From: Escherichia phage MLF4
Sequence record: NC_055780.1
Reading direction: 5' to 3' (one strand)
Length of the DNA: 64,000 nucleotides
In this document: positions 11,863-64,000 of the stretch, piece after piece
How the letters are laid out: each line of letters opens with the position of its first letter
How positions within the stretch are numbered: the stretch's first letter is position 1
Notes under the pieces: model-generated
Seen by the model: only the letters and a program-made list of their open reading frames with translations
What the model was told of the DNA's origin: nothing
The model's database searches: none
Program-made: the position numbers and the translations under genes

Positions 11863-11863
11863 T

Positions 11864-11887: not shown

Positions 11888-11895
11888 TATCTCAC

Positions 11896-13966: not shown

Positions 13967-14299
13967 ATGTCTGACATTCATGTAACTGGAATTGCTCAAG
14001 TAAACATCCGCTGCCAATTTAAAACTGTACCTGGGGTGACTCATATTACTTTATCACACGACCCATATTCTCGTGGAAGACAGTTAACTGGTATAATTAA
14101 GTTTTTCGGTGGAATTGGCGGAAACGAATTTACTATAGGCGATGACGAAATTGTTGGCTGTAAATTAAAAGTTCAGAAGGGCGTGTTAGAACTTTTTAGT
14201 GATGAAGTTTTTGATGAAATCTCACGAGCAGTTAACAAAGGAATGTTAACGTTAATTAAAATGATTAAAGCTAGCGGATATGTTCCTGATCCTTTTTAA
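13967..14299 (+). CDS. Hypothetical protein (frd.x cluster)
   Basis: 110 aa ORF, RBS GAGGA. Confidence 0.55.
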   Translation: MSDIHVTGIAQVNIRCQFKTVPGVTHITLSHDPYSRGRQLTGIIKFFGGIGGNEFTIGDDEIVGCKLKVQKGVLELFSDEVFDEISRAVNKGMLTLIKMIKASGYVPDPF

Positions 14300-14310
14300 T
14301 AGGAGGCAAT

Positions 14311-15137
<827 letters not shown>

Positions 15138-15156: not shown

Positions 15157-15504
15157 ATGAATTTTAATTATTACCCTATTCTGTTAGAAAAAGACGAGAA
15201 ACAGCCAAAATGGCAAGGTCCTCAGTTTATTAAAGGTGTCTATCAATTAGTAGTTCCTAAAGACAAGATTTATAGTAGCTGTTTCACTGAATCCGCTTGC
15301 AGTATTTTCGGTAATAGTTCTCCGTATTGGAATTTTGACATAAAGCTGGATAGAAATATCGATATTTGGTTGAAAGCTATGGATATTGGTAATATCACGT
15401 TTGATGAGAATAATTATCATATTATTGGTCGCTTTTCCAAACGCGGTAAAGAATTATATTTCACACCTGAAATTGAGAGAAAATTTGATGCTAAACCGTA
15501 TTGA
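15157..15504 (+). CDS. Hypothetical protein between frd and td
   Basis: 115 aa ORF with ATG at 15157; no recognisable motif. Confidence 0.5.
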   Translation: MNFNYYPILLEKDEKQPKWQGPQFIKGVYQLVVPKDKIYSSCFTESACSIFGNSSPYWNFDIKLDRNIDIWLKAMDIGNITFDENNYHIIGRFSKRGKELYFTPEIERKFDAKPY

Positions 15505-15549: not shown

Positions 15550-16410
15550 ATGAAACAATACCAAGATTTAATTAAAGACATTTTTGAAAATGGCTATGAA
15601 ACCGATGACCGAACGGGCACAGGAACAATTGCTTTGTTCGGTACTAAATTACGATGGGATTTAACTAAAGGCTTTCCTGCAGTAACAACTAAAAAGCTCG
15701 CCTGGAATGCATGCATTGCTGAGCTAATATGGTTTTTATCAGGAAGCACAAATGTCAATGATTTACGATTAATTCAATACGATTCGTTAATCCAAGGTAA
15801 AACAGTCTGGGATGAAAATTACGAAAATCAGGCAAAAGATTTAGGATATCATAGCGGTGAACTTGGTCCAATTTATGGAAAACAGTGGCGTGATTTTGGC
15901 GGTGTAGACCAAATTATAGAAGTTGTTGATCGTATTAAAAAACTGCCAAATGATAGGCGTCAAATTGTTTCTGCGTGGAATCCAGCTGAACTTAAATATA
16001 TGGCATTACCGCCTTGTCATATGTTCTATCAATTTAATGTTCGTAACGGATACCTTGACCTCCAGTGGTATCAACGTTCGGTAGATGTTTTCCTCGGTCT
16101 TCCATTTAATATTGCATCATATGCTACGTTAGTTCATATTGTAGCTAAGATGTGTAATCTTATTCCGGGAGATTTGATATTTTCTGGCGGTAATACTCAT
16201 ATCTATATGAATCACGTAGAACAATGTAAAGAAATTTTACGTCGTGAACCTATGGATTTATGCGAATTGCAATTAAAATTTCCAGATGAATTTGATGAAT
16301 GGGACACAGAATCGCAGGTATTTTGGTTGAGTCAATTCGCAAAGCCACATAATTTTGTTCTTAACAACTATGAATCACACCCTCCTATTAAAGGAAAGAT
16401 GGCGGTGTAA
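15550..16410 (+). CDS. td: Thymidylate synthase, uninterrupted (no intron)
   Basis: 286 aa contiguous ORF; [26 protein letters not shown]... with PCH catalytic motif; same length as the spliced T4 td product. Confidence 0.92.
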
Positions 16411-16694: not shown

Positions 16695-16974
16695 ATACAA
16701 ATCCGACTTTGATGTTAATATTCACCGCGGTACATTTTGGGGAAATTACGTCGGTAAAGATGCTGGCAGCCGGGAGGCTGCCATTGAATTATTCAAAAAA
16801 GATTTTATACGTCGAATTAAATCCGGAGAAATAACTAAAGCACATTTAGAGCCTTTACGTGGAATGAGGCTAGGATGCACATGTAAACCAAAGCCGTGTC
16901 ATGGTGATATAATAGCTCATATAGTTAACCGATTGTTTAAAGACGATTTTCAAGTTGAGGACTTATGCAATTAA
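16648..16974 (+). CDS. Hypothetical protein with C-terminal [12 protein letters not shown] motif (DUF4326-like)
   Basis: 108 aa ORF; motif ...[24 protein letters not shown] resembles the CxCxP..CHGD signature of a domain of unknown function; overlaps the upstream ORF by 47 nt. Confidence 0.5.
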
Positions 16975-19229
16975 TTAATGTTATCAAAAGTAGTGGTGTT
17001 TCTCAGAGCTTTGACCCGCAAAAAATTATTAAAGTTTTATCTTGGGCAGCCGAAGGAACATCTGTAGATCCTTATGAATTATATGAAAATATTAAATCAT
17101 ATCTCCGTGATGGAATGACCACTGATGACATTCAAACCATTGTAATTAAGGCTGCTGCGAATTCTATTTCAGTTGAAGAGCCTGATTATCAATACGTAGC
17201 CGCTCGCTGTTTAATGTTTGCTCTTCGTAAGCATGTTTACGGACAATATGAACCACGTTCATTTATTGACCATATTTCTTACTGTGTAAATGAAGGTAAA
17301 TATGACCCTGAACTGCTGTCAAAATATTCAGCAGAAGAAATTACATTTTTAGAATCAAAAATTAAGCACGAGCGGGATATGGAATTTACTTATTCCGGTG
17401 CGATGCAATTAAAAGAAAAATATCTAGTTAAAGATAAAACCACTGGTCAAATTTATGAAACTCCGCAGTTTGCATTTATGACTATTGGAATGGCACTGCA
17501 TCAAGATGAACCTGTTGATAGATTAAAACATGTTATTCGTTTTTATGAAGCAGTATCTACTCGACAGATTTCATTACCAACTCCTATTATGGCTGGTTGT
17601 CGTACTCCGACTCGACAGTTTAGTTCATGTGTTGTTATTGAGGCAGGTGATTCGCTGAAGTCTATTAATAAGGCTTCAGCTTCAATTGTTGAATATATCT
17701 CTAAACGCGCTGGAATTGGTATTAACGTTGGTATGATTCGTGCCGAAGGTTCTAAGATTGGCATGGGTGAAGTCCGCCATACTGGTGTTATTCCTTTTTG
17801 GAAACATTTTCAGACTGCTGTTAAATCATGCTCACAGGGTGGAATTCGTGGCGGCGCTGCTACTGCTTATTATCCTATTTGGCATTTGGAAGTTGAAAAT
17901 CTTCTCGTTCTAAAAAATAACAAAGGTGTTGAAGAAAACCGTATTCGTCATATGGATTATGGTGTTCAGCTGAATGATTTGATGATGGAACGATTCGGAA
18001 AGAACGATTACATTACTTTGTTCAGTCCGCATGAAATGGGTGGCGAGCTTTATTATTCTTATTTTAAAGACCAAGACCGTTTCCGTGAATTATACGAAGC
18101 AGCAGAAAAAGACCCTAATATTCGTAAAAAACGTATTAAAGCCCGTGAACTATTTGAATTGCTCATGACTGAACGTTCAGGAACAGCAAGGATTTATGTA
18201 CAGTTCATTGATAATACGAATAACTATACTCCGTTTATTCGTGAAAAAGCACCTATTCGTCAGAGTAACTTGTGCTGTGAAATTGCTATTCCAACAAATG
18301 ATGTGAATAGCCCCGATGCTGAAATTGGATTGTGTACTCTCTCTGCATTCGTACTGGATAATTTTGACTGGCAAGACCAAGATAAAATTAATGAATTGGC
18401 AGAAGTCCAAGTTCGTGCTCTTGATAATCTTTTGGATTACCAAGGATATCCAGTTCCTGAAGCAGAAAAAGCTAAAAAGCGTCGTAACCTCGGTGTAGGT
18501 GTTACCAACTATGCAGCTTGGCTGGCAAGTAACTTTGCTTCTTATGAAGATGCTAACGATTTAACACATGAACTATTTGAGAGATTACAGTATGGACTCA
18601 TTAAAGCATCCATTAAGCTCGCCAAAGAAAAAGGACCTTGCGAATATTATTCAGACACTCGTTGGTCTCGAGGCGAATTACCTATCGACTGGTACAATAA
18701 AAAGATTGACCAAATCGCAGCTCCAAAATACGTTTGTGACTGGTCGTCGCTGCGGGAAGACCTTAAGCTCTTTGGCATCCGTAATAGCACATTATCAGCA
18801 CTTATGCCATGTGAGTCATCTTCCCAAGTTTCTAACAGTACAAACGGTATCGAGCCTCCACGTGGACCAGTCTCTGTTAAAGAATCAAAAGAGGGCTCCT
18901 TTAATCAAGTCGTGCCCAATATTGGGCATAACATAGACCTCTATGATTATACGTGGAAATTAGCTAAGAAAGGCAATAAACCTTATCTTACGCAAGTAGC
19001 TATTATGCTGAAATGGGTATGTCAATCAGCTTCAGCTAATACATATTATGACCCGCAGATTTTTCCAAAAGGAAAGGTTCCAATGTCAATAATGATTGAT
19101 GACCTTTTGTATTTTTGGTATTTTGGCGGAAAAAATTTCTATTATCATAATACCCGCGATGGTTCTGGTACTGATGATTATGAAATAGAAACTCCAAAAG
19201 CTGAAGATTGTTCATCCTGTAAATTATGA
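16965..19229 (+). CDS. nrdA: Aerobic ribonucleotide reductase large subunit
   Basis: 754 aa (same as T4 NrdA); N-terminal ATP-cone, active-site region ...NLCCEIAIP...; sequence matches recalled T4 NrdA start [12 protein letters not shown]. Confidence 0.92.
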   Translation: MQLINVIKSSGVSQSFDPQKIIKVLSWAAEGTSVDPYELYENIKSYLRDGMTTDDIQTIVIKAAANSISVEEPDYQYVAARCLMFALRKHVYGQYEPRSFIDHISYCVNEGKYDPELLSKYSAEEITFLESKIKHERDMEFTYSGAMQLKEKYLVKDKTTGQIYETPQFAFMTIGMALHQDEPVDRLKHVIRFYEAVSTRQISLPTPIMAGCRTPTRQFSSCVVIEAGDSLKSINKASASIVEYISKRAGIGINVGMIRAEGSKIGMGEVRHTGVIPFWKHFQTAVKSCSQGGIRGGAATAYYPIWHLEVENLLVLKNNKGVEENRIRHMDYGVQLNDLMMERFGKNDYITLFSPHEMGGELYYSYFKDQDRFRELYEAAEKDPNIRKKRIKARELFELLMTERSGTARIYVQFIDNTNNYTPFIREKAPIRQSNLCCEIAIPTNDVNSPDAEIGLCTLSAFVLDNFDWQDQDKINELAEVQVRALDNLLDYQGYPVPEAEKAKKRRNLGVGVTNYAAWLASNFASYEDANDLTHELFERLQYGLIKASIKLAKEKGPCEYYSDTRWSRGELPIDWYNKKIDQIAAPKYVCDWSSLREDLKLFGIRNSTLSALMPCESSSQVSNSTNGIEPPRGPVSVKESKEGSFNQVVPNIGHNIDLYDYTWKLAKKGNKPYLTQVAIMLKWVCQSASANTYYDPQIFPKGKVPMSIMIDDLLYFWYFGGKNFYYHNTRDGSGTDDYEIETPKAEDCSSCKL

Positions 19230-19280: not shown

Positions 19281-20459
19281 ATGAGCACAGTTTTTAATAC
19301 AAATCCAGTTGATGTTTTAAAAGAACCTATGTTTTTTGGTTCAGGTCTTGGTATTGCGCGTTATGATATTCAACGTCATAAAGTTTTTGAAGATTTAACC
19401 GAAAAGCAATTATCATTTTTCTGGCGTCCTGAAGAAGTAAACTTGATGATGGATGCTGCACAGTTTAATAAGCTTCCTCAGTATCAGCAAAATATTTTTA
19501 CTAACAACTTGAAGTATCAATCACTTTTAGATAGCATTCAGGGTCGCGCGCCATCTGCTGTACTTATGTCATTAATTTCAGACCCAAGTCTTGATACATG
19601 GGTTGCTACATGGACTTTTAGTGAAACTATTCACAGTCGTTCATATACTCATATCATGCGAAATCTTTATACTGATCCATCGAAGGTATTTGATGAAATT
19701 GTATTAGATGAAGCTATTATGAAACGTGCTGAATCCATTGGACGTTATTATGATGATGTTCTGATTAAAACTCGTTATTGGGAAAACGCTAAAGCTGATA
19801 TCGAATACCAAAAAGAAATTAATGCAGACGAAGACGTTATTGAAGATGCTATTGAGCATGAGACATATTGGAAGCGTGAGCTAATGAAATCTCTTTACCT
19901 CTGTTTGCATGTAATCAACGCATTGGAAGCTATTCGTTTTTATGTATCTTTCGCATGTACCTTTAACTTCCATAAGAACATGGAAATCATGGAAGGTAAT
20001 GCCAAGATTATGAAGTTCATTGCACGCGATGAACAGCTTCACCTTAAAGGCACCCAATATATTATTCGTCAACTTCAATCTGGTACTGATGGCGATCAAT
20101 GGGTTAAAATTGCTCAAGAGTGTGAACAAGAAGCAGTTGATATTTTCATGGAAGTTAACCGCCAAGAAAAAGATTGGGCAGTTCATTTATTTAAAGATGG
20201 CGATGTTCCTGGATTAAATACAAATAGCATGTGGAGCTTTATTGATTACTTAACTGTATCTCGTATGAAACAGTGCGGTCTTCCATGCCCAATTACCGAT
20301 GCTCCGGTTAAACATCCATATCCTTGGATTCGTGAATATCTTAATTCTGATAATGTTCAATCCGCGCCACAAGAAGTAGAACTGTCATCTTATCTTGTTG
20401 CACAGATTGATAATGATGTTGATGATAAAGTTATGATGAGTTTTAAAAAATACTTTTAA
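19281..20459 (+). CDS. nrdB: Aerobic ribonucleotide reductase small subunit, uninterrupted
   Basis: 392 aa contiguous ORF immediately after nrdA (51-bp gap); no intron or intervening ORF. Confidence 0.9.
   Translation: MSTVFNTNPVDVLKEPMFFGSGLGIARYDIQRHKVFEDLTEKQLSFFWRPEEVNLMMDAAQFNKLPQYQQNIFTNNLKYQSLLDSIQGRAPSAVLMSLISDPSLDTWVATWTFSETIHSRSYTHIMRNLYTDPSKVFDEIVLDEAIMKRAESIGRYYDDVLIKTRYWENAKADIEYQKEINADEDVIEDAIEHETYWKRELMKSLYLCLHVINALEAIRFYVSFACTFNFHKNMEIMEGNAKIMKFIARDEQLHLKGTQYIIRQLQSGTDGDQWVKIAQECEQEAVDIFMEVNRQEKDWAVHLFKDGDVPGLNTNSMWSFIDYLTVSRMKQCGLPCPITDAPVKHPYPWIREYLNSDNVQSAPQEVELSSYLVAQIDNDVDDKVMMSFKKYF

Positions 20460-23505: not shown

Positions 23506-23509
<4 letters not shown>
23279..23509 (+). 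CDS. Hypothetical protein (pseT.1-like)
   Basis: 76 aa ORF, translationally coupled. Confidence 0.5.
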
Positions 23510-24709
<1,200 letters not shown>

Positions 24710-25410: not shown

Positions 25411-25440
25411 AGCTCTACCAAACAAATGAGGAAATTGAAA

Positions 25441-25968
25441 ATGAGCGAATGGTTTGAAGAAGATAAGGTTTATCGCTTTAAAGCTGGATATAAAGATATT
25501 TTTAATGAAACCTGTGGGGCTAATAAACGAATTGCCCAGTTTATTGATGAAAATTCATTTAAAGTAAAAATTGATCCTGCGAAGAATGTTATTAGCATTA
25601 AACGCGAAATTGACGATTACTGGTATAAAGCTGTTGATGTAATGGACGAATGCTATAAAGATAGCCCGTTGTTTTCAATTACTTATATGTCAGAATATTA
25701 TTTTTTCGAAGAAGTTCAAAAAGATGATTCTGTCAGTAAATTTGAAATTAAAACTGATAAAGAAATTAAATGGAAAGTAGTAGGTATTACTGGTTGTATG
25801 TTTTATATCTATGCTCAAACTGATACGAAGGAAGAAGCTAAAAAGAAAGCTCTAGAATATCTTGAAGAGTATGAAGAAGGTCCAGTAATGATTACCCAAG
25901 ATGCTGAATTAGTTTCTGTCAAATTAGTTAAAAACGTTGAAAGTAAGGAGCTGGGATCAACATGCTAA
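25441..25968 (+). CDS. Hypothetical protein (cd.x cluster)
   Basis: ORF with RBS GAGGA before ATG at 25441 (the track start at 25426 is less likely). Confidence 0.5.
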   Translation: MSEWFEEDKVYRFKAGYKDIFNETCGANKRIAQFIDENSFKVKIDPAKNVISIKREIDDYWYKAVDVMDECYKDSPLFSITYMSEYYFFEEVQKDDSVSKFEIKTDKEIKWKVVGITGCMFYIYAQTDTKEEAKKKALEYLEEYEEGPVMITQDAELVSVKLVKNVESKELGSTC

Positions 25969-46788: not shown

Positions 46789-48300
46789 TTATAAATTAAC
46801 TGTTTTCATTACGTAATTAAATTTTTCATCTGCGTAGCGCTGAATACGATCAATGCCGTGTTTTAAAAGATAGTTCAAATGAACATATTTCTTTTTCGTA
46901 TTAGCAGATTTTGGCTTAACGCCACAATCATCTATGAGGTCCCAGACGGTTGCTATTGTCTTAGAACCATGCTTACGTAATACACGACCGATTGTTTGTA
47001 ATACAATGATTTTTGATTTAACACCGTGCGCTAAAACAACGTGATGCAGATTTTTAACTGAAATACCAGTAGAAAATACACCATAACTAGCTACTATAAT
47101 TATTCCTTTACCATTTTCAGCTAAGGTTTTCATTATATTGCGGGTTTCGGTATCAACTTCCCCTGATACGTAATAAACTTTATCGTATTCATTTTTAATT
47201 AAATCGAAAATAGCTTTACCATGTGATACATGTTTAAACATGACAAAAGCGTTTTCATCTTTTTGTGCAAGCTTAATAGCTAATTTAGCGATCCATTTAT
47301 TTCTTTTACTAAGCCCAGTAATAATTTTTATTTCTTCTTGATAAGTTTTTCCCTTTAATTTAGTAGTGAACTCATCGGGATAGCGAAGAAAAATACTATT
47401 AATTTTTAGCTCAGTTACTTGTCCATCTTCCATTAACTTAGAAGTCGTTACTGGCTTAAATATTTCGCCAAACATTCCAACATACTGCATGATATTGGCT
47501 TTGCCGTCACGTAATGAACCAGATAGACCAAATTTGAACATGCAGTTATTTAAACCTGATATGATAGATGAAATACTTTTTCCTGTAGCAAGATGACATT
47601 CATCATTCATCATCATTCCAAACTGTGAGAACCATTCTTTTGGTTGTTTTACTACAGTTTGCCATGTACCAACAACGACTGGTGCATCATTTTTATATTT
47701 ATCATCTTTTGATGCTCCGCCACCAATTTTCTTTATCATTGCGTGACTGAATAAACGATAATCAACAAAGTCATCAGCCATCTGAGTTGTCAGAGCAGTT
47801 GTTGGAACAATGATAAGAATTTTACCTTCATAATTTTCCAAATAATATCGCGCAAGCAAAGCTTGAATTAAAGATTTACCTGCAGATGTTGGAAGATTAA
47901 GAATTCTACGACGATTAACTAATCCTTCGAACACTGCATCTTTTTGATACCAGTGTGGTTCAATTCTTTTATTTCCTGAATAGATTTCTAATTTAGAAAG
48001 CCATTCATCAAAATCTTTTCTTGATAATTCTTCTTTTTCGTTAATTTGCGGGTCAATCCAGGCTTTATAGCCAAAGTTATCACAGAACTTTTTAATTTGC
48101 CCGACTAAGCCGAATGGAAGAAGACGATTATAATCTAAAAGACGGATTCGTCCATCCCAGTGGCCATATTTGTATTTCGGATTAAAACGATACCCATCAG
48201 CTTCAAAGCTAAAGAAATCACGGAGTTCATGAAATGTACTTTCTTCACAATCAATTCTCACGTGACTAAAATCATAAAAATGTACTTTAATGTCAGTCAT
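46789..48300 (-). CDS. uvsW: UvsW DNA/RNA helicase (SF2)
   Basis: 503 aa; Walker A PTSAGKS and DECH box; synteny uvsY-uvsW. Confidence 0.9.
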   Translation of the reverse strand: MTDIKVHFYDFSHVRIDCEESTFHELRDFFSFEADGYRFNPKYKYGHWDGRIRLLDYNRLLPFGLVGQIKKFCDNFGYKAWIDPQINEKEELSRKDFDEWLSKLEIYSGNKRIEPHWYQKDAVFEGLVNRRRILNLPTSAGKSLIQALLARYYLENYEGKILIIVPTTALTTQMADDFVDYRLFSHAMIKKIGGGASKDDKYKNDAPVVVGTWQTVVKQPKEWFSQFGMMMNDECHLATGKSISSIISGLNNCMFKFGLSGSLRDGKANIMQYVGMFGEIFKPVTTSKLMEDGQVTELKINSIFLRYPDEFTTKLKGKTYQEEIKIITGLSKRNKWIAKLAIKLAQKDENAFVMFKHVSHGKAIFDLIKNEYDKVYYVSGEVDTETRNIMKTLAENGKGIIIVASYGVFSTGISVKNLHHVVLAHGVKSKIIVLQTIGRVLRKHGSKTIATVWDLIDDCGVKPKSANTKKKYVHLNYLLKHGIDRIQRYADEKFNYVMKTVNL

Positions 48301-48329
48301 GTCTAAATACCATGTAATAAATATATCTA

Positions 48330-48337
48330 TATTTATA
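48330..48337 (-). promoter_or_regulatory. Late promoter TATAAATA for uvsW
   Basis: Plus-strand TATTTATA about 30 nt upstream of the uvsW ATG. Confidence 0.55.
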
Positions 48338-48350
48338 CTGAGGAAATATT

Positions 48351-49031
48351 ATGATAGATAAAGATTATATTGCAGAGCTGAAGGCTCTTGATGATAATAA
48401 AGAAGCTAAAGCTAAATTAGCTGAATATGCTGAACAGTTTGGTATAAAGGTCAAAAAGAATAAATCTTTTGATAATATCGTTGTTGATATTGAAGAAGCT
48501 CTCCAGAAGCTCGCTAGTGAACCTATGCCAGAGACTGATGGGTTATCTATTAAAGACTTAATTGATGCTGCTGATGCTGCAGAGGGATTAAAATATGACG
48601 ATGAAGAAGTCAATCCAGAGGCAGCACTTCTGATTGATTCTCCGGTTAAATCTGACATTAAAATTGAAGTAGTAGAAACGGATAAAATTCCTGAAAATAC
48701 CGATGTTTTGATTGAAGATACTCCTTTTGTTGAAGAAAAATTCGAACAGGCTGTAGCTGAGATTATTGAATCTGAAAAGCCGTCTGTATTTACTCTTCCG
48801 GAAAACTTTAGTCCGAATCTTCAGCTGATTGGAAAAAATCCAGGATTCTGCACTGTTCCTTGGTGGATTTATCAATGGATCGCTGAAACTCCGGATTGGA
48901 AATCTCGTCCAACCAGTTTTGAGCATGCTTCTGCACACCAAACATTATTTAGCTTAATTTATTACATTAATCGCGATGGATCAGTTTTAATTCGTGAAAC
49001 TCGTAATTCTTCTTTCGTAACATTAAAATAA
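48351..49031 (+). CDS. inh: Inh, inhibitor of prohead protease (probable)
   Basis: 226 aa ORF (same size as T4 Inh) immediately upstream of hoc; acidic, internal-protein-like composition. Confidence 0.65.
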   Translation: MIDKDYIAELKALDDNKEAKAKLAEYAEQFGIKVKKNKSFDNIVVDIEEALQKLASEPMPETDGLSIKDLIDAADAAEGLKYDDEEVNPEAALLIDSPVKSDIKIEVVETDKIPENTDVLIEDTPFVEEKFEQAVAEIIESEKPSVFTLPENFSPNLQLIGKNPGFCTVPWWIYQWIAETPDWKSRPTSFEHASAHQTLFSLIYYINRDGSVLIRETRNSSFVTLK

Positions 49032-49040
49032 GGATAACTT

Positions 49041-50171
49041 ATGGCTTTTACAGTTGATATAACTCCTAAAACACCTACTGGAGTTATAGATGAGACTAAG
49101 CAGTTTACTGCTACGCCCAGTGGTCAAACTGGAGATGGACCTATTACCTATGCTTGGACTGTTGATGATGCACCGCAGGAAGAAACGTCTGCAACTTTTA
49201 GTTATGTACTAAAAGGTCCTGCTGGACAAAAGACTATTAAGGTAGTTGCAACAAATCCAGTTCCTGATTCTGAAGCTGAAACAGCTGAAATTAGTACAAC
49301 TATCACAGTTCAAAATAAGACACAGACAACTACCTTGGCAGTAACTCCTGATAGTCCTGCTGCTGGAGTGATTGGAACAGCTGTTGAATTTACCGCTGCC
49401 TTAGCTTCTCAACCATCAGGCGCATCTGCTACGTATCAATGGTATGTAGATGATTCTCAAATTGGTGGAGAAACTAACACCACATTTAGTTATACTCCTA
49501 CTACAAGTGGAGTAAAACGAATTAAATGCGTAGCCCAAGTGACGGCAACGGATTATGACGCAAAAGAAGTTACTTCGAATGAAGTATCATTAACGGTTAA
49601 TAAGAAGACAATGAATCCACAGGTTACATTGACTCCTCCTTCTATTAACGTTCAACAAGATGCTTCGGCTACATTTACTGCTAATGTCACTGATGCTCCA
49701 GAAGAAGCGCAAATTGCGTATTCATGGAAGAAAGATTCTTCTCCTGTAGAAGGGTCAACTAATGTATATACCGTTGATACCTCATCTATTGGAAGTCAAA
49801 CTATTGAAGTTACTGCAACTGTTACTGCTGCTGATTATGATAGCAAAACTATTACGGCGGAAGGTCAAGTTCAGGTAACTGATAAAGTTGCTCCAGAGCC
49901 AGAAGGTGAATTGCCTTATGTTCATCCTCTTCCACATCGTACTTCAGCTTACATCTGGTGCGGTTGGTGGGTTATGGATGAAATCCAAAAAATGACCGAA
50001 GAAGGTAAAGATTGGAAAACTGATGATCCAGATAGTAAGTACTACTTGCATCGTTACACTCTTCAGAAAATGATGAAAGATTATCCAGAAGTTGATGTTC
50101 AAGAATCGCGTAATGGATACATCATTCACAAAACTGCTTTAGAAACTGGTATCATCTATACCTATCCATAA
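49041..50171 (+). CDS. hoc: Hoc, outer capsid decoration protein with Ig-like domains
   Basis: 376 aa (same as T4 Hoc); repeated Thr/Val-rich Ig-like segments; synteny inh-hoc. Confidence 0.85.
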   Translation: MAFTVDITPKTPTGVIDETKQFTATPSGQTGDGPITYAWTVDDAPQEETSATFSYVLKGPAGQKTIKVVATNPVPDSEAETAEISTTITVQNKTQTTTLAVTPDSPAAGVIGTAVEFTAALASQPSGASATYQWYVDDSQIGGETNTTFSYTPTTSGVKRIKCVAQVTATDYDAKEVTSNEVSLTVNKKTMNPQVTLTPPSINVQQDASATFTANVTDAPEEAQIAYSWKKDSSPVEGSTNVYTVDTSSIGSQTIEVTATVTAADYDSKTITAEGQVQVTDKVAPEPEGELPYVHPLPHRTSAYIWCGWWVMDEIQKMTEEGKDWKTDDPDSKYYLHRYTLQKMMKDYPEVDVQESRNGYIIHKTALETGIIYTYP

Positions 50172-50176
50172 TCATA

Positions 50177-50196
50177 AGGGGCTTCGGCCCTTTTTT
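50177..50196 (+). terminator. Intrinsic terminator after hoc
   Basis: AGGGGC-TTCG-GCCCCT followed by TTTTTT. Confidence 0.75.
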
Positions 50197-50259
50197 CATT
50201 TTGAAAGCACACAAAACACAATCAGAAAATGGTGTATATAATGGCACCAACTCGATAAC

Positions 50260-50475
50260 ATGAGATTGATTATGAGAACTGAGGTTGTGGTGTTTACTCT
50301 TCATGAGTCTGGAAAGTCATTCATTGAAATTGCTCGTGAATTAAACTTACAGGCGAAAGAAGTGGCTGCATTATGGGCTCGAGCTATGACTGCTAAGAAT
50401 AAATTTGAAACTCGAGAAAAAGTTGTCTATAGAAAAAGACATATCAATAAAAAGGTGAAAAATGGAACAGTATGA
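50260..50475 (+). CDS. Hypothetical small protein (24.3-like position)
   Basis: 71 aa ORF; TATAAT-like box upstream. Confidence 0.45.
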   Translation: MRLIMRTEVVVFTLHESGKSFIEIARELNLQAKEVAALWARAMTAKNKFETREKVVYRKRHINKKVKNGTV

Positions 50476-50740
50476 TCTTTATGAAAATGAATCTTTTGCT
50501 AATCAATTACGTGAAAAAGCATTAAAAAGTAAACAGTTTAAGCTAGAGTGTTTTATTAAAGATTTTTCAGAACTTGCTAATAAAGCAGCTGAACAAGGTA
50601 AAACATATTTTAGTTATTATTGTACTGCTCGCGATAAATTGATTACTGAAGAAATTGGTGATTGGTTGAGAAAAGAAGGATTCAGCTTTAAAGTTAATAG
50701 TGATCAGCGTGATGGTGATTGGTTAGAAATTACATTTTGA
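50462..50740 (+). CDS. Hypothetical protein (24.2-like position)
   Basis: 92 aa ORF. Confidence 0.5.
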   Translation: MEQYDLYENESFANQLREKALKSKQFKLECFIKDFSELANKAAEQGKTYFSYYCTARDKLITEEIGDWLRKEGFSFKVNSDQRDGDWLEITF

Positions 50741-50749
50741 GGATTAATT

Positions 50750-51754
50750 ATGTTTAAAAAGTATAGCAGTCTTGAAAATCATTACAACTCTAAATTTATT
50801 GAAAAACTTTATAGCTTGGGATTGACTGGTGGGGAGTGGGTAGCTCGTGAAAAGATTCACGGCACAAATTTCTCATTGATTATTGAGCGTGATAAAGTAA
50901 CTTGCGCTAAACGCACTGGTCCTATTCTTCCTACTGAAGATTTCTTTGGGTATGAAATTATTCTAAAGAATTACGCTGATTCCATTAAAGCAGTACAAGA
51001 TATTATGGAAACTTCAGCGGTTGTATCTTATCAAGTCTTTGGCGAATTCGCTGGACCTGGCATTCAGAAGAATGTTGATTATGGTGATAAAGATTTTTAT
51101 GTATTTGACATTATTGTCACTACAGAAAGTGGTGATGTGACTTATGTCGATGATTATATGATGGAATCATTCTGTAATACATTTAAATTTAAAATGGCTC
51201 CACTTTTAGGTCGCGGTAAATTTGAAGAGCTTATTAAATTGCCAAATGATTTAGATTCTGTCGTCCAAGATTATAATTTTACAGTAGACCATGCTGGATT
51301 AGTTGATGCAAATAAATGCGTTTGGAATGCCGAAGCAAAAGGCGAAGTATTTACTGCTGAAGGATATGTATTGAAACCTTGTTATCCTTCTTGGCTGCCT
51401 AATCGCAATCGTGTGGCCATCAAATGCAAGAACTCTAAATTTAGTGAAAAGAAAAAGTCTGATAAGCCTATTAAAGTTAAAGTTGAATTGTCAGAAGCTG
51501 ATAATAAATTGGTTGGAATTTTAGCTTGTTATGTTACATTGAACCGAGTAAATAACGTTATTTCCAAAATTGGCGAAATTAGTCCAAAAGATTTTGGAAA
51601 GGTGATGGGATTAACTGTTCAAGATATTTTGGAAGAAACTTCTCGTGAAGGTATTACTCTAACCCAAGCGGATAATCCTTCTTTGGTTAAAAAGGAATTA
51701 GTTAAAATGGTACAAGATGTACTTCGTCCGGCTTGGATTGAGTTAGTGAGCTAA
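50750..51754 (+). CDS. rnlB: RNA ligase 2
   Basis: 334 aa (same as T4 Rnl2); nucleotidyltransferase motif I KIHGTN near the N-terminus. Confidence 0.88.
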
Positions 51755-51758
51755 ATAA

Positions 51759-51784
51759 AAAGGGACCTTTCGGTCCCTTTGTTT
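51759..51784. terminator. Bidirectional terminator at the convergent rnlB / gene 24 junction
   Basis: AAAGGGACC-TTTC-GGTCCCTTT stem-loop with T-runs. Confidence 0.65.
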
Positions 51785-53067
51785 TATTCATCAATGATAA
51801 TTTTTGGTAGCTTAACACCTAATAAAACGGACAAATCTGAACGACCCGCCATTTTATCCATGTCTCCACCATCAATTACTCTTGCTTCTTTTTCATCTTT
51901 TGCTACGGTGTAAGGATTTGCAGATAAAGCATATCTAACTAATAAACCGATAGACGGTTGTAAGCTTTCTGGATCAACCACAACTTTAAATGCACCTACA
52001 TGTTCAGGGTCATCTAAGTCGAGACCTTCTGTATACGGAGCATAGAAAATTGATCCAACAATTTCTTTTTCACCGATATTTTCTACTACGCCAACGATTA
52101 CATAATCTAATGGGCTGTTAGTATCGCAATAAAGCGGTAAACCATTAGCTAAGAACCCATAGGCATTTTGTGAAAGATACTTGTCATCTTCTGGTTTATG
52201 TTTTAACCAACCAGATGCAGCAAGAATCGCAGCGGCACGAGCAGAAGCAACACAGAACGTTGCTGTATAAGTTGATTCTTTTTGGATATGCGAAACCATT
52301 TCGCATACCATTCGGTATAATGAACGACCAGCTTCAGGTGCAGATGCATAACTCAAATCAATGAATCCAGTATCAGTAATTCCTGTAACTTTATAACGTT
52401 TTGATACTGTAATCAAAGACTGCAGAATATCTTTATTGATTTCATCTGCCATTTCAGTTGCAAGCAAATCTTCTAAGAAATTAGGAGCATCGAATCCATT
52501 TGCTTCTAAATCTTGTGCTAATTCAACCGTGATACCAGTTTTAAGTTTACGAGATTTAACTGCGGTTTGCCATTTATTAATCTGGAATCTAGCATCCGCA
52601 ATTTCACTATCAGAGCTTTCAAATTTGCTTGTTGACGCTGCGTCAGAAAATAGACGAACCTTTAAAAGAACAATTGCAATCTGAAGAGCTAATTCTAAAT
52701 CACTTTCTTCAATATCAGCAAATGGTGTATCTTCTAATACTTTATAAACGATATTATTATATTTGAATAAATCGCCTTTATTGAGAGTTAATTTAGACTC
52801 TTCTGTTAATTCTGTGATTTTTTCTCGGTCTACATATCCAGCTTCGCCAGCATAAGTAGCACCAGTTTTAAATGTAAATTCGTTGTCTGGGTTAAGGTAT
52901 TTGATACCATAAAAAGCAGCAACAGGTTGATTAGTTCTTTGCGTTGCTACAATGTCAGAATATATTAATTTAGTGGTAGCGCGAGTCAAAGCAACGAGAT
53001 TTGGGCGACCGATTGAGTTGCTATTCGTTGTGGTTGATTCGCGCAGAAGTTCGTTGATTTTAGCCAT
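51784..53067 (-). CDS. 24: Head vertex protein gp24
   Basis: 427 aa (same as T4 gp24), capsid-protein-like, synteny 23-24. Confidence 0.88.
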   Translation of the reverse strand: MAKINELLRESTTTNSNSIGRPNLVALTRATTKLIYSDIVATQRTNQPVAAFYGIKYLNPDNEFTFKTGATYAGEAGYVDREKITELTEESKLTLNKGDLFKYNNIVYKVLEDTPFADIEESDLELALQIAIVLLKVRLFSDAASTSKFESSDSEIADARFQINKWQTAVKSRKLKTGITVELAQDLEANGFDAPNFLEDLLATEMADEINKDILQSLITVSKRYKVTGITDTGFIDLSYASAPEAGRSLYRMVCEMVSHIQKESTYTATFCVASARAAAILAASGWLKHKPEDDKYLSQNAYGFLANGLPLYCDTNSPLDYVIVGVVENIGEKEIVGSIFYAPYTEGLDLDDPEHVGAFKVVVDPESLQPSIGLLVRYALSANPYTVAKDEKEARVIDGGDMDKMAGRSDLSVLLGVKLPKIIIDE

Positions 53068-53094
53068 TGCGCTTTCCTTTTGGTTTATATGATT

Positions 53095-53102
53095 TATTTA
53101 TA
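53095..53102 (-). promoter_or_regulatory. Late promoter TATAAATA for gene 24
   Basis: Plus-strand TATTTATA about 30 nt upstream of the gp24 ATG. Confidence 0.6.
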
Positions 53103-53116
53103 CCATAAAAACAACT

Positions 53117-53138
53117 AAAGGGACCCGAAGGTCCCTTA
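53117..53138 (-). terminator. Terminator after gene 23
   Basis: Minus-strand AGGGACC-TTCG-GGTCCCT followed by T-rich tract, between gene 23 stop and gene 24 promoter. Confidence 0.6.
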
Positions 53139-53150
53139 AATCGTCAAAGA

Positions 53151-54716
53151 TTAGATACCTTTAACATATACACGGCGGAAGTAAGCGTTTTTACCAAGGC
53201 TATTCAGAATAGAAGGCATACCGCTCTGGATGCGAGAAGCCGGAGCCTGAGCAGCGGATTCTGCAAATGGGTTGATACCGATACCGTAACGAGTTTTGAA
53301 CCCCATTACCGGTTGGAAGTTCTTCGGATCGGAACCACGCAGCGGAGTCAGAGCTACATATGGAGCATAGTAAATACCAGCATCCATTTCGTTCGGACCT
53401 TTATAACCTACAGTGAAATAATCCTGTTTAGCATACTGGTCGATATATACGCGGTATTTACCACCCAGAACACCAGCAAATACTGACTTGGTAGTATCAG
53501 TGTTAAAGCCGGTAGCCAGACCTTGTGCAGCATAAGAAATGCCGGTATCAACTGAAGCCAGAACGTTAACTACGTTACGGGAAGCGATAATGAAGTTACC
53601 TTCACCACGACCGGTCTGACGAGCAATTTCAACTGCTTCTTTGTCAATCTGGAACAACAGAGCTTTAAAGGATTCACCCGCCCAGCGAGCACCACGAATA
53701 TCGATTGGGTCCTGGAAGTCAAATACACCAGCTTTAGAACCCGGAGTCAGGGTCATACCAGATTTACCAACCTGCGCTGAGTAGTTAATCCAATCAACAA
53801 CTTCGCGGTTGATTTCCAGCATAATTTCGGTAGCCAGAATACCGGACAGTTCAGCATCAGCATCCATACCGTGAACAGCGCGAAGGTCTTGTGCTAATTC
53901 AATAGAGTAAGCAGCTTTCAGCTGACGAGATTTAGCTTCGATAACTTGTTTATCGATACGGAAGCCCATTTCATTCCATGGGTTATCGGTAGAACCGTTA
54001 AAACCTTCCTGAAGTTCAGCGATAGAAGTAGCCATACCTTCAGCGATTTCTACCAGTACACCTGCTTCCATTTGTTTCTTAATTTCAGCATCTAATTTAG
54101 CTGCATCATTTGCACTAGAATCAATTGTCACAACAGCTGAAGCTTGCAGATATACAGTACCGGTTTCCTGGAAGAAGTGAGTATAGATATCACCTACAAC
54201 AGTTTCAGTACTAGCAGCCAGAGCTGGGAATTTCTTAGCAGCACCCTGACCAGAGAACATTGCATCTGGACCATACATTGGGTGGAATGCTTCTTTAGCG
54301 CCGGAAGCGATTGGGTCTTTACCATATACTGCGCGCAGTGCGAATACCTGACCAGTCGGGCTGTTCATCGGCTGAACACCGCAAATATCGAAAGCAATCA
54401 GGTTAGGAATAGCACGACGTACCATACCCATAACAGCCGGGCCAATCTGGGTTACTGCGCCAGAAGTCTGACCTGCAGCGATGTTGGTAGCATTGTAACC
54501 GTGGTCACCACCAATTTCAGCTTCTGTTAAGAAAGAACCGAATGCCTGAGCAATTTTTTCGTCTTTATATTCCGGAGCTGTCTGGAAATCTTTTTCCTGG
54601 TTTTCAAAGATTTTAGCGATAATCGCTTGTTTGCTATTAGCAATTTCCGGTAAACCTTCACCTTCCAGTAATGGCTTCCATTTGTTCAAAAGTTCAGCTT
54701 TAGTTTTGATAGTCAT
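53151..54716 (-). CDS. 23: Major capsid protein gp23
   Basis: 521 aa (same as T4 gp23); sequence ...AEIGGDHGYNATNIAAGQTSGAVTQIGPAVMGMVRRAIPNLIAFDICGVQPMNSPTGQVF... recognisable as gp23. Confidence 0.95.
   Translation of the reverse strand: MTIKTKAELLNKWKPLLEGEGLPEIANSKQAIIAKIFENQEKDFQTAPEYKDEKIAQAFGSFLTEAEIGGDHGYNATNIAAGQTSGAVTQIGPAVMGMVRRAIPNLIAFDICGVQPMNSPTGQVFALRAVYGKDPIASGAKEAFHPMYGPDAMFSGQGAAKKFPALAASTETVVGDIYTHFFQETGTVYLQASAVVTIDSSANDAAKLDAEIKKQMEAGVLVEIAEGMATSIAELQEGFNGSTDNPWNEMGFRIDKQVIEAKSRQLKAAYSIELAQDLRAVHGMDADAELSGILATEIMLEINREVVDWINYSAQVGKSGMTLTPGSKAGVFDFQDPIDIRGARWAGESFKALLFQIDKEAVEIARQTGRGEGNFIIASRNVVNVLASVDTGISYAAQGLATGFNTDTTKSVFAGVLGGKYRVYIDQYAKQDYFTVGYKGPNEMDAGIYYAPYVALTPLRGSDPKNFQPVMGFKTRYGIGINPFAESAAQAPASRIQSGMPSILNSLGKNAYFRRVYVKGI

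Positions 54717-56876: not shown

Positions 56877-56877
<1 letters not shown>
56638..56877 (-). CDS. 67: Prohead core protein gp67
   Basis: 79 aa with poly-acidic C-terminus; synteny 20-67-68. Confidence 0.8.
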
Positions 56878-58502
<1,625 letters not shown>

Positions 58503-58534: not shown

Positions 58535-59026
58535 TTATTCCCAATAATCGAGAGCAAGAGTTACTTCAAAGGTTTGGATTTCATTGTTTGAATCCCAATC
58601 TAATTGAAGTTCACCCACGTTAGTAGGCCACAGACCTTTAATTTCAATTTCTTTTGTTACTGTTTTAGCATCACGAGCATATTGACGAACAATAGCGCTC
58701 TTTTTATACTCTGCAGGTTTTCCACCAGTAATTTCGTTTCCTTGACCAGCAGCAATGCTTTGCCAATCAACAAACTTCTGACGAGCATCATGAGCTTCAT
58801 CATTCATCACTGTAACAGTCCAGTCATCGAATGTACGATCGCCTGCCACGTTAATTTTACGGTTCATAAATCCGACTGGAATTTTTTCTACAATACCAGC
58901 TGGTAAAGCAGTGGCTTTACATTGGAACGTAAAATTTTGTCCAAGATAAGAAATTTCTACTTGGAATAAGTTAGGTCGAGCAAAATCACCAGATTCAAAC
59001 GCTCGTGTTACATCATCTACAAACAT
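58535..59026 (-). CDS. 19: Tail tube protein gp19
   Basis: 163 aa (same as T4 gp19), synteny 18-19-20. Confidence 0.88.
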   Translation of the reverse strand: MFVDDVTRAFESGDFARPNLFQVEISYLGQNFTFQCKATALPAGIVEKIPVGFMNRKINVAGDRTFDDWTVTVMNDEAHDARQKFVDWQSIAAGQGNEITGGKPAEYKKSAIVRQYARDAKTVTKEIEIKGLWPTNVGELQLDWDSNNEIQTFEVTLALDYWE

Positions 59027-59099
59027 ATTAGCCTCTGTAGTATTTATATCCCTATGTTTAACCTAGGGCATATAGAATTAAAGAATTAAGGATATAGTG

Positions 59100-59107
59100 T
59101 ATTTATA
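59100..59107 (-). promoter_or_regulatory. Late promoter TATAAATA for gene 19
   Basis: Plus-strand TATTTATA; a hairpin GGCCTG-CCGAAA-CAGGCC lies just upstream of it on the minus strand. Confidence 0.55.
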
Positions 59108-59133
59108 TGGCCTGCCGAAACAGGCCTTTAGAA

Positions 59134-59691
59134 TCATTCTAGTAAATCCCAAAGATCTACGCTATTTCTTTTTGACTTTTCTCGGTTAGATTCCCAAGTG
59201 ATTATTTCTAAATTTTTTACACTTGCTATAATTTCCGGCGGAATTAAATTATCAAATCCATATTTGATAGATACTTTATGATCGAGTTGATAAGCACCTT
59301 CTACGCCGCACATTCCTATTTTATCAGCATTCGGCCATTTTGACCAGATTTTTCTTATTTTAGCTGACTTAGTTATAGAATGAACTCTACTAGCATATAA
59401 TGCAAACTCTTTTCTTTTGCCAGTCCATCGAGGATGTTTATCACCTCTTTGCCATGGTCTGCTTATTCCAGATTGAACTTCCGAATTTTTAATAGAAACT
59501 TGTTTAATGCTACATTTTCTACATGCATGTGTGGGTGTTCTATTTAAAAGTTGAATGCTTCTACTAAATTTAGTACCACACAAATCACATTTAGCGTCAA
59601 CTATTTTATTACTATTCTTTGGCATTAATTCTATTGGAACAGATACTGTATCATGATATGATACTTTATATCCCAGAATTGTCGACCACAT
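59134..59691 (-). CDS. Freestanding HNH homing-endonuclease-like protein inserted between genes 18 and 19
   Basis: 185 aa from ATG at 59691 (MWSTILGYKV...); zinc-finger-like CDLCGTK...CRKC and HNH-type motif YQLDHKVSIKYGFDN...NLEIITWESNREKSKRN. The track start at 59778 is a TTG that would run through the hairpin. Confidence 0.7.
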   Translation of the reverse strand: MWSTILGYKVSYHDTVSVPIELMPKNSNKIVDAKCDLCGTKFSRSIQLLNRTPTHACRKCSIKQVSIKNSEVQSGISRPWQRGDKHPRWTGKRKEFALYASRVHSITKSAKIRKIWSKWPNADKIGMCGVEGAYQLDHKVSIKYGFDNLIPPEIIASVKNLEIITWESNREKSKRNSVDLWDLLE

Positions 59692-59756
59692 TTTTGAATG
59701 ATTTCTTGGTTTTATTGTAACAAACTTAGAAATAATCACTTGTTTCCTCGAGAATA

Positions 59757-59774
59757 GGGGCCGAAGCCCCATAA
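59757..59774 (-). terminator. UUCG-tetraloop hairpin downstream of gene 18 (terminator or processing site)
   Basis: Minus-strand GGGGCTTCGGCCCC directly after the gp18 stop; same stem-loop sequence as at 524-541. Confidence 0.5.
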
Positions 59775-59778
59775 TCAA

Positions 59779-61758
59779 TTAACCTGCAAGACCAGTTAAC
59801 TCATCAAAATCTGCACCGGTAGCAGTTGCGACGAAATTAAGTTGGATATAATTTATACTACGAGCCGGTTGGATGTAGAATGTTGCAACAAACTCATTTC
59901 TATCAATTACTGACGGAGTGTTATTTGTTGTATCGCAAACTACACGATATTCATAAATTCCACCGAGAGCTTTAATTCCCTGTAAGTACTGGGCAGTTTC
60001 TGTGCGGAATGATGAACGAGTAAACGCATTGTTTAATTCGAACAAACGATATTTTGAACTACGTCCGATATTCGTTTTCAACATATTAAACAGACGACGA
60101 ACGTTAATACGATCAAATGGAGAAGGAACAGAAGTAGCTGTTTTATCACCATACAATACGTAACCATCACCACCTGTACCAGTTACCGGGTTGATAGCTT
60201 CTTGGTATAAACGGTCGCGCTGAGCCTGGCGAGTTTCAATAGCAAGTTTAATAACGTTAAGAATCTGGCCACGATTATAACCAGCTGGAGACATCCAAGT
60301 CTGAGAAACGTTATCGGTTCTCGCGCATAAACCAGCAATATCAGCTGCTAATGGAACCCAACGATTCACATCATTATATTTGTCATACTGATATTTGTAG
60401 TTGCCATCGATTGCTGCATAGGTTGAACTGATATTAAAGTTATTATCAGTGTATGAACCTGCTGCAGTTCTCCAATTGACTAAGTTATCAACAGCACGGG
60501 TTACAGGAATTCCAACTACAGTTTCACGCGGTGGTGAGCACAATACTAAGCAATCCTGGCGAGCATCACCAATTGAAACGACGTGTTTTTGGACAGTAGA
60601 TGCTGTTTCTAAAGATTCACCAGCACAAGAACCCGCAATAAACAGTTGAACGTCAACAGATTCACGGTCAGCAAAGAAGTCCCAAGCTTCCATCAAATCT
60701 CCTGCTGTTACTTCAGCATTTGATGATAATCCACCAGACAGAGTTAAAATTCCAGAGAAGCCTTCTGGCCAGTTTTGTGCAGTTGCAAAAATATATTCTG
60801 AGCCGCCTTTTGCGAAAAAGTCATCGATATAGATGTTACTATCGTAAATATCTTTTTCGCCACGCTTAGTTGAAAGAACAACGCTTTGAACAATAGCATC
60901 ATTACGACGAACTATAATAGCGTACTGTGAATCAGTTTGTGGTCCGTATCCAAACACCGCTTTAGCAGTAGATGCACGAGTACCACCACCTGGATAAATT
61001 GGGAGTAATGCAGAAGCGCCTTTCGCATAGTCAGCTTTAGATACGATTTCAATTTCAATTTTATCGCCTAATTCGCCTGGATAGAGAGCTACTACTCCTG
61101 GAATTCCATATTTTTCAAGATTTGCCTGAAAATCAACTGCTGTCATAGCAGTTTCAGCGCTCTCGATTTCAGCTAATAAAATACCGGAATCAGTAATAAT
61201 TTTTCCAAGAGTTATTACTGCAGCTAAACCGGAAGAAGATGAAGAAATTTCTGCAGTCCAGCTAGAACCTAATGCTGGGTATTCGCCAACTTCTTTAGCT
61301 TTAGCAATAATTTTTGCAGTAGGAATATTAATTTTCTTAATTTTTCCATCTGCGTCTACTTCAGTAATTTTACCTTCAGTTTCAATATCATCTGAAACAT
61401 ATTTGACCGTGATTTTATCTCCAACTGCATAGTTACTACCTGGGGTAGAAATTGTGTATTCAATATTACCAGCAATTGGCGATGAGTTTTTAGCGGTATC
61501 TCTATCAACAGCACGAACTACTCGTAAGTCATTTCCGTACTGCAAGAAATTCATCGCAGACATAAAGTAGTCAGCTGTTTCAGCGGTTGGTTGACCAAAA
61601 GTATTAACTAAATCTACTTCATTTGTAACCTGTTTAATCTGAAAAGCAGGACCCCACTGGAATTTACCGGCCAAAGCTGCTGTACCAGTAGAGTTATTAA
61701 CCACGGTGCTTTGAACCGTAGTTTCTTTGAGCTCAATGCCCGGAGATAATAAAGTCAT
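59779..61758 (-). CDS. 18: Tail sheath protein gp18
   Basis: 659 aa (same as T4 gp18), synteny 17-18-19. Confidence 0.9.
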   Translation of the reverse strand: MTLLSPGIELKETTVQSTVVNNSTGTAALAGKFQWGPAFQIKQVTNEVDLVNTFGQPTAETADYFMSAMNFLQYGNDLRVVRAVDRDTAKNSSPIAGNIEYTISTPGSNYAVGDKITVKYVSDDIETEGKITEVDADGKIKKINIPTAKIIAKAKEVGEYPALGSSWTAEISSSSSGLAAVITLGKIITDSGILLAEIESAETAMTAVDFQANLEKYGIPGVVALYPGELGDKIEIEIVSKADYAKGASALLPIYPGGGTRASTAKAVFGYGPQTDSQYAIIVRRNDAIVQSVVLSTKRGEKDIYDSNIYIDDFFAKGGSEYIFATAQNWPEGFSGILTLSGGLSSNAEVTAGDLMEAWDFFADRESVDVQLFIAGSCAGESLETASTVQKHVVSIGDARQDCLVLCSPPRETVVGIPVTRAVDNLVNWRTAAGSYTDNNFNISSTYAAIDGNYKYQYDKYNDVNRWVPLAADIAGLCARTDNVSQTWMSPAGYNRGQILNVIKLAIETRQAQRDRLYQEAINPVTGTGGDGYVLYGDKTATSVPSPFDRINVRRLFNMLKTNIGRSSKYRLFELNNAFTRSSFRTETAQYLQGIKALGGIYEYRVVCDTTNNTPSVIDRNEFVATFYIQPARSINYIQLNFVATATGADFDELTGLAG

Positions 61759-61786: not shown

Positions 61787-64000
<2,214 letters not shown>

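Follow-up and report, generated by a model that had tools for sequence, protein, structure and literature searches.

What is an extra gene doing between the tail sheath gene (18) and the tail tube gene (19) of a T-even phage, at a junction that in T4 is a gap of 116 non-coding nt with no coding sequence (CDS)? The question is raised by Escherichia phage MLF4 (sequence record NC_055780.1), from which we analyzed a stretch of 64,000 nucleotides (hereafter the window), a segment of a T-even (Tequatrovirus) genome that is reverse-complemented relative to the T4 map. From the sequence alone, an original prediction had taken an open reading frame (ORF) at this position for a free-standing HNH endonuclease gene and had placed no gene there in T4, as the T4 gap bears out. 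We find that the ORF is present or absent at one precisely bounded site among close relatives, and that a recoded patch in the adjacent sheath gene is associated with its presence. We propose, with a probability of roughly 0.7, that the ORF and its relatives are uncharacterized free-standing HNH-like homing endonuclease genes, their activity, target and homing being predictions.

Presence and absence of a gene at the 18/19 junction

A 100-nt T4 junction probe retrieved 497 Tequatrovirus-type records. The junction is intact and empty, as in T4, in 382 of these and split at the same two points in the other 115; the ORF is absent from 77% of Tequatrovirus records, T4 and T2 included, and T6 carries it. 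Both states can be found within a single species, Tequatrovirus teqdroes, in which R5505 is occupied and phage teqdroes is empty. These counts, the precise boundaries and the two states within one species uphold the insertion polymorphism that had been proposed for the 18-19 junction, and the comparison of related phages shows that the ORF is not universal among T-even relatives. The closest public match to the 2-kb stretch of the window with the ORF is Escherichia phage Ec_O157kw (99.2%), and T6, PST and PP01 are arranged alike. Three records under other host names, PV654520.1, OR584013.1 and MG010123.1 (Pseudomonas phage vB_PSGBLB0006, Pseudomonas phage PsgM02F and Staphylococcus phage SAJK-IND), are 98-100% identical to the coliphage region and are probably mislabelled or contaminated entries.

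The features of the locus are as follows:

61790-63622, minus strand: gene 17 (large terminase)
59779..61758, minus strand: gene 18 (tail sheath), 659 aa, 98-99% identity to T4 gp18; stop codon TAA at 59781-59779
59135..59777, minus strand: insert relative to T4 (from the T4 alignment), 643 nt, in place of the T4 heptamer ACGGTGC
59757..59770, minus strand: insert-borne hairpin GGGGC-UUCG-GCCCC, immediately 3' of the gene 18 stop
59746..59749, minus strand: Shine-Dalgarno sequence GAGG, followed after a 6-nt spacer by GTG at 59739-59737
59134..59739, minus strand: the ORF under study, 201 aa, GTG start, between genes 18 and 19
59109..59126, minus strand: native UUCG hairpin GGCCUGU-UUCG-GCAGGCC, found in T4 too and here downstream of the ORF
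59100..59107, minus strand: T4-type late promoter box TATAAATA, same in T4
59042..59049, minus strand: second late promoter box TATAAATA, proximal to gene 19, same in T4
58535..59026, minus strand: gene 19 (tail tube), 163 aa, 100% identity to T4 gp19
56877-58463, minus strand: gene 20

The insert boundaries, TAAT/TGAT...GAATG/ATTCTAAAGG (slashes mark the joints), are the same in both alleles of the ORF described below, and the stop codon TGA of the ORF spans the right one, with TG coming from the insert and A from native sequence. The native hairpin and both late-promoter boxes of gene 19 are left unaltered. As had been predicted, the ORF stands free, with no intron or intein, in the interval that runs from the stop of gene 18 to the native hairpin and promoter preceding gene 19, and its flanks, a UUCG hairpin on the gene 18 side and the gene 19 late promoter on the other, can both be read in the sequence. 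At the ends of the insert (59770-59781 and 59130-59140) there is an imperfect direct repeat, AATTGATT on the left and AATGATT on the right, which could be due to chance or could be a trace of the first entry of the cassette.

The insert-borne hairpin does not match a consensus intrinsic terminator in a terminator scan, and a sigma-70 promoter/terminator scan detected nothing terminator-like, while promoter-like sites were not in excess. RNA folding near the start of the ORF forms the UUCG hairpin; because only two of the four Shine-Dalgarno bases are paired and the z score is -0.8, we do not claim that the ribosome-binding site is sequestered as in mobE.

Where the junction is occupied, two alleles can be distinguished. 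Allele A, with at least 95% identity to the window protein, is found in 68 records, T6, PST and PP01 among them; allele B, the RB3/RB9/HP3 type, shares about 54% of its amino acids with the window protein. The genes that flank them are 98-100% identical. Compared nucleotide by nucleotide, the alleles are 90-97% identical over the first ~60 nt, 33-57% over nt 61-450 and 73-100% over the last ~240 nt. The stretch of low identity takes in the entire N-terminal domain, which is swapped between the alleles.

On the evidence of its sequence, the ORF is a genuine gene, beyond chance, because the ratio of nonsynonymous to synonymous polymorphism (pN/pS) is low (0.03-0.10; seven allele A copies compared) and because its relatives number in the thousands. 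The mechanically called ORF (59134..59778, minus strand) is intact and counts 214 aa from a TTG. Most likely, however, the gene is 59134-59739 and encodes 201 aa from the GTG at 59739, since homologues start with MIISKxV and the aligned window residues are VIISKFV, since this GTG has a GAGG at the spacing given above, since the context GAGGAA[AT]CAAGTG is kept in 10 of 10 Tequatrovirus copies read, and since the records of T6, PST and G10400 annotate a 606-nt CDS. The 185 aa first proposed correspond to an internal ATG (MWST...): the ORF was real, and its length was probably not. The product is labelled hypothetical in the T6 record, and a few recent records call it an HNH or homing endonuclease.

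A zinc finger joined to a predicted nuclease domain

Both sequence features on which the original prediction rested, the zinc-finger-like cysteine cluster and the LDHKVS...NL...N..K motif, are present, and they fall into two domains:

59455..59739, minus strand: N-terminal domain, aa 1 to ~95, beta strands and a CxxC...CxxC treble-clef-like zinc finger (C51, C54, C73, C76)
59176..59292, minus strand: HNH-like beta-beta-alpha core, aa 150-188, YQLDH154KVS...N176L...N185REK

The N-terminal half, modelled with pLDDT >90, resembles DUF4379/mS66; one subgroup of relatives has His at position 76. This domain is presumed to be the DNA-binding and specificity module. The C-terminal part shows a strand at 150-154, two short helices, a strand at 177-181 and a helix at 182-188, that is, a beta-beta-alpha arrangement. 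D153-H154, N176-L177 and N185...K188 do not vary among 30 relatives and keep a conservation of at least 90% across 144 diverse ones; these six residues make up the best conserved columns of the family. When the C-terminal domain was used in fold searches, the top matches were Gme HNH (4h9d) and the HNH protein of phage GVE2 (5h0o), at 12-17% sequence identity, followed by Cap5, SciA, McrA, BrxU, several Cas9 HNH domains, SspE, VcaM4I, ScoMcrA and I-HmuI.

Sequence profiles gave a different result. A match to HNH homing endonuclease profiles had been set as a test of the prediction, and it did not materialize at significance in Pfam, NCBIfam or PDB sequences, whether the query was the protein or a profile of 30 or of 144 relatives: Pfam found no HNH match for the protein or the 30 relatives and only weak matches to DUF4379 (a treble-clef zinc finger), NCBIfam profiles did not match the protein, and a sequence-profile search of the PDB found zinc fingers and mS66 only, below threshold. 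Foldseek with the full-length model against the PDB returned nothing significant. Among the 144 relatives, Pfam matches were to DUF4379 (10 proteins, best E 7e-6), DUF7487 (7) and NUMOD3 (2), with HNH_4 in two (best E 9.5e-4) and HNH in one (E 0.003), these three HNH matches being below cut-off. Nor could the protein be placed with the Mob or Seg families, as had been suggested, given that it has no similarity to MobE (hhalign probability 0.08) and no GIY-YIG domain in Pfam or PHROGs. By hhalign, the C-terminal profile shows no relation to T4 MobE, the T4 I-TevIII remnant, the HNH endonuclease of Bp7 and two LIMEstone1 Hef-like proteins. From the fold matches and the conserved catalytic-type residues rather than a curated profile, we conclude that the predicted C-terminal structure represents a divergent, cysteine-less HNH-like (H-N-N) nuclease domain.

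The ORF matches PHROG 5104 (E 4e-76), whose function is not assigned. Searching 1.8 billion proteins, clustered at 50% identity, with a profile of the 30 relatives gave 6058 cluster representatives at E<=1e-3 and 105 at E<=1e-30. Full-length relatives in other T4-like phages are 31-62% identical, and every one that we could place (about 20 contexts) immediately follows the sheath gene and, with phiM12 as the exception, precedes the tube gene. They occur in Klebsiella, Enterobacter, Serratia and Acinetobacter phages, in Dhakavirus Bp7, in Shewanella phage Thanatos-2 and in Sinorhizobium phage phiM12, as well as in metagenomic T4-like phages whose gp17, gp18 and gp20 are 35-50% identical to those of T4. 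The CHI14-like genus offers a second presence/absence polymorphism (L037 occupied, L036 and L038 empty), and there the ORF is preceded by its own TATAAATA box.

Elsewhere the C-terminal module occurs alone, fused to multiple zinc ribbons, to a helix-turn-helix (HTH), to DUF7487 or to a Hef-like C-terminal half, and such module shuffling is a pattern typical of phage homing endonucleases. Three IMG/VR contigs (L020, L021, L023) encode proteins of 550-580 aa that consist of a DUF4379-like zinc finger, the HNH-like module and a Hef-like half, the last 32% identical to the Hef-like F-LimVIII. As HNH-like module and Hef-like half stand in one protein, their sequences suggest that two nuclease-type modules may be combined in a single chain.

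F-LimVIII itself comes from Dickeya phage LIMEstone1, in which a Hef-like endonuclease gene occupies the sheath/tube gap on the opposite strand (PMC3296691):

L063 3129-4919, opposite strand: F-LimVIII, Hef-like, 596 aa, DUF7487 repeats and a DUF559/Vsr-like nuclease

Because LIMEstone1 holds an unrelated Hef-like gene in the same gap, the gap is a recurrent landing site for unrelated endonuclease genes. Variation extends to the next junction, where tube gene 19 meets portal gene 20. There, Bp7 has an annotated HNH endonuclease and a gene 20 annotated in two pieces (L005 3706-4287 and 4345-5567); gaps of 640-720 nt separate gp19 from gp20 in L008, L012 and L033, and L058 has an extra 206-aa ORF (1345-1965).

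A recoded patch in gene 18 and a proposed homing model

A short recoded stretch stands out near the 3' end of gene 18:

59830..59866, minus strand: recoded patch of 37 nt encoding ARSINYIQLNFV, 52-88 nt upstream of where the gene 18 stop codon ends

We scanned diversity in 19 Tequatrovirus sequences (9 empty, 7 allele A, 3 allele B) over 1.9 kb upstream and 1.0 kb downstream. No other window in these 2.9 kb is as diverse as the patch (pi 0.21; mean 0.039, next-best window 0.10), and the sequence around it is nearly invariant. It encodes ARSINYI(T/Q)LNFV, all changes except T/Q being synonymous, and all T4-like sheath genes examined share the conserved peptide KPARSINYI.LNF. In a second genus, most of the final 600 nt of gene 18 diverges by 0-8% between occupied and empty members, whereas divergence at the same codons reaches 38%.

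Probes joining the T4-type patch to either junction gave counts that are estimated from identity bands and not corrected for relatedness: empty junctions combine with a T4-type patch in ~246 records and with another patch in ~131 (~246/377), occupied junctions in 4 and 106 (4/110). The association between patch and occupancy has a Fisher p of ~2e-34, again uncorrected for relatedness.

What the patch represents is less clear-cut. Three carriers of an intact allele B (sb1, Ec_YwIITB1 and sb2) keep the T4-type patch, and we therefore reject the idea that immunity requires the recoding, at least where allele B is concerned; the patch may be a target for allele A only, or a co-conversion tract. 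About one-third of the genomes without the ORF (L029, L035, T2 (L051) and ~131 further empty records) carry the recoded patch seen in carriers. Because it occurs in empty genomes despite lying 51 nt from the junction, patch haplotypes appear to spread independently, possibly as resistance alleles; alternatively, the recoded form could be ancestral.

T4-like phages are known to host free-standing homing endonuclease genes (HEGs) that cut a conserved neighboring gene (PMC2988022). Building on what the analysis shows, namely the integrity of the gene, the fold, the conserved catalytic-type residues, the polymorphism with precise boundaries, the fidelity to one locus and the hotspot in its flank, we propose the following course of events. 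As the ORF has no promoter of its own in MLF4, it would be expressed by extension of the late gene 18 transcript through the UUCG hairpin of the insert, and its weak GTG start would give low-level translation. The N-terminal zinc-finger domain would bind DNA sequence-specifically and, according to the model, be joined through a flexible linker to the C-terminal HNH-like (His-Me finger) nuclease. In this predicted nuclease we infer, by analogy of motif, that H154 would serve as the general base and that N176 and N185 would be structural and metal-binding residues.

In a mixed infection, the enzyme would nick or cut the genome without the ORF, either at the unoccupied 18/19 junction or close to where gene 18 ends (3'). 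T4-type recombination-dependent repair would copy the ORF together with adjacent gene 18 sequence from the carrier, and therefore the ORF would be over-inherited and neighboring markers of the recipient locally excluded. The gene 18 patch would be either a cleavage or recognition site made resistant or a co-conversion tract traveling with the ORF. Both the empty junction, as had been suggested originally, and a site in the sheath gene are candidate targets, and the patch, located 52-88 nt inside gene 18, points equally to the latter.

Several observations weigh against homing. No curated HNH profile matches the protein above threshold, and the association of patch and occupancy is inflated by shared ancestry. 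Other observations are shared with what we consider the main rival, which makes the ORF a resident accessory gene. It would then encode an old nuclease or DNA-binding protein, expressed late and acting, for example, in competitor exclusion, counter-defence or DNA processing, and would have been lost repeatedly. It keeps its place in phages with only 35-50% identity in gp18, its pN/pS indicates strong purifying selection, allele B persists intact alongside a T4-type patch, and decayed copies are few or absent, with all 115 occupied records covering at least 80% of the 2-kb region of the window (a near-complete insert) and 231 of 240 tblastn matches covering at least 80% of the protein. Selection, fixed position and scarcity of decay would also fit a useful resident gene. 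Repeated loss, however, should leave varied deletion scars, and the 382 empty genomes share one exact junction. Two very different alleles sit in near-identical genomes, presence and absence both occur inside species, in two genera a recoding hotspot adjoins the site, the module recombines with modules of HEG type, and T4 and T2 thrive without the ORF. On balance we regard a resident gene as unlikely.

More improbable is a protein that binds nucleic acids through its zinc finger and has no nuclease activity, regulating late mRNA or tail gene expression for example, with the HNH-like motif left as a structural relic. The lack of matches to curated HNH models would agree with this, as would the resemblance of the zinc-finger region to DUF4379/mS66, an RNA-associated protein of mitoribosomes, yet the family is best conserved at the very His, Asn and Asn columns that an active His-Me finger should have, and the fold matches are active nucleases. 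Least credible of all is an HNH nuclease that assists the terminase in packaging, as in HK97-like and GVE2-type phages: the best structural matches (4h9d and 5h0o) belong to what we take to be this class and the ORF lies two genes from gene 17, but 77% of Tequatrovirus records, including T4 and T2, do without it, the sheath gene separates it from the terminase so that the two are not adjacent, and headful packaging in T4 needs no such factor.

It is tempting to take the homing endonuclease proposal further and to speculate that the lineage tracked an invariant 13-codon sheath motif (KPARSINYI.LNF) across T4-like phages, that the recoding was left behind by an arms race of the endonuclease with its target, that specificity is renewed by swapping the N-terminal domain, and that a very large nuclease family has gone unannotated. 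Such a picture would extend over 6000 or more clusters (50% identity) that no Pfam or NCBIfam model covers, over phages of enterobacteria, Acinetobacter, Shewanella, rhizobia and environmental hosts, and over recoding in two genera and a third of the genomes without the ORF. We hold it tentatively and would sooner doubt it than rely on it.

Patchily distributed free-standing HNH endonuclease genes are a classic T-even feature of a kind already known, and finding one in T4-like phages is no surprise. The ORF family, the 18/19 site and the divergent nuclease domain, on the other hand, appear uncharacterized; a full-text literature search found no paper on the sheath/tube ORF. If the homing endonuclease reading is true, a new free-standing endonuclease family and a new landing site would be added to the T-even homing system, a gene of the classical phage T6 now annotated as hypothetical would be explained, and PHROG 5104 and thousands of metagenomic proteins would gain a name. 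T4 (empty, T4-type patch), T2 (empty, recoded patch) and T6 (carrier) form a natural three-way set in an essential late operon. Such elements would also turn parts of structural genes into local hotspots of recombination, in phages that serve therapy and typing. The general view of how homing endonucleases act would be unchanged.

Other sites in the window and known endonuclease systems

At the better-known endonuclease sites the window appears bare. As had been predicted, the td and nrdB intron sites are empty and there is no mobE: td (15550-16410), nrdA (16965-19229) and nrdB (19281-20459) run without interruption, nothing corresponds to the T4 td intron, nrdB intron, nrdB.1 or mobE, and 51 bp separate nrdA from nrdB. 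segG also seems to be absent, because gp59 (11209-11862) lies ~100 bp from gene 32 (region 11209-12870); the 217-aa ORF at 11209-11862, considered as SegG, was rejected as it is gp59 itself. Going by the sizes of the ORFs and their adjacency alone, segD (23/24) and segE (inh/uvsW) would not fit into 46789-54716. The 18/19 ORF may be the sole endonuclease-like gene in the 64 kb.

Compared to T4, the window has further small ORFs to which no function is assigned (13967-14556, 15157-15504, 23506-23808 and 25426-25968). Between frd.1 and frd these are phrog_3566 and phrog_3183; phrog_1928 lies between frd and td, phrog_2364 between pseT.1 and pseT, and phrog_3710 between cd.3 and cd.2. Not one of the five is endonuclease-like.

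Similar to T4 MobA-E, the 18/19 ORF is a free-standing reading frame in an intergenic gap beside a conserved gene and is patchy among close relatives (PMC2988022). It also shares with them HNH-type chemistry (predicted here), presumably late expression, and a hairpin near the start (PMC2988022). However, Mob proteins have the HNH domain at the N-terminus and DNA binding at the C-terminus (PMC2988022), whereas here the zinc finger is N-terminal and the putative nuclease C-terminal, and no similarity to MobE is detectable. The site is new as well: a review of T4 homing endonucleases lists none at 18/19 (PMC2988022, Table 1). The arrangement of an ORF beside a conserved gene, in which clustered silent changes a few dozen nt away distinguish carriers from non-carriers, recalls the intronless homing of SegF, SegG and MobE. 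Unlike in those systems, the association of patch and occupancy is not absolute here, and Seg enzymes are GIY-YIG proteins, unlike the product of the ORF.

With respect to the structurally closest proteins, Gme HNH and GVE2 HNH, the ORF adds an N-terminal zinc finger to a C-terminal domain of low sequence identity and stands in another genomic context. Alignment of the family shows that it lacks the usual cysteine pairs of classical HNH domains. I-TevIII, encoded in the nrdB intron, is reported to have a zinc finger besides its HNH part, and the predicted product of the ORF resembles it in combining the two in a T-even phage. In contrast to the ORF, I-TevIII is intron-encoded, and no similarity was found in the comparison made with the T4 remnant that holds its HNH half.

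The Hef-like F-LimVIII differs from the ORF in its length, its opposite strand, its DUF7487 repeats and DUF559/Vsr-like nuclease, and in having no HNH-like module; Pfam searches of the window ORF found none of DUF7487 repeats, a DUF559/Vsr-like nuclease or a Hef C-terminal domain. Nevertheless, the two occupy the same sheath/tube gap (PMC3296691), and some metagenomic proteins join the DUF4379-like finger and HNH-like module of the ORF to a Hef-like C-terminal half.

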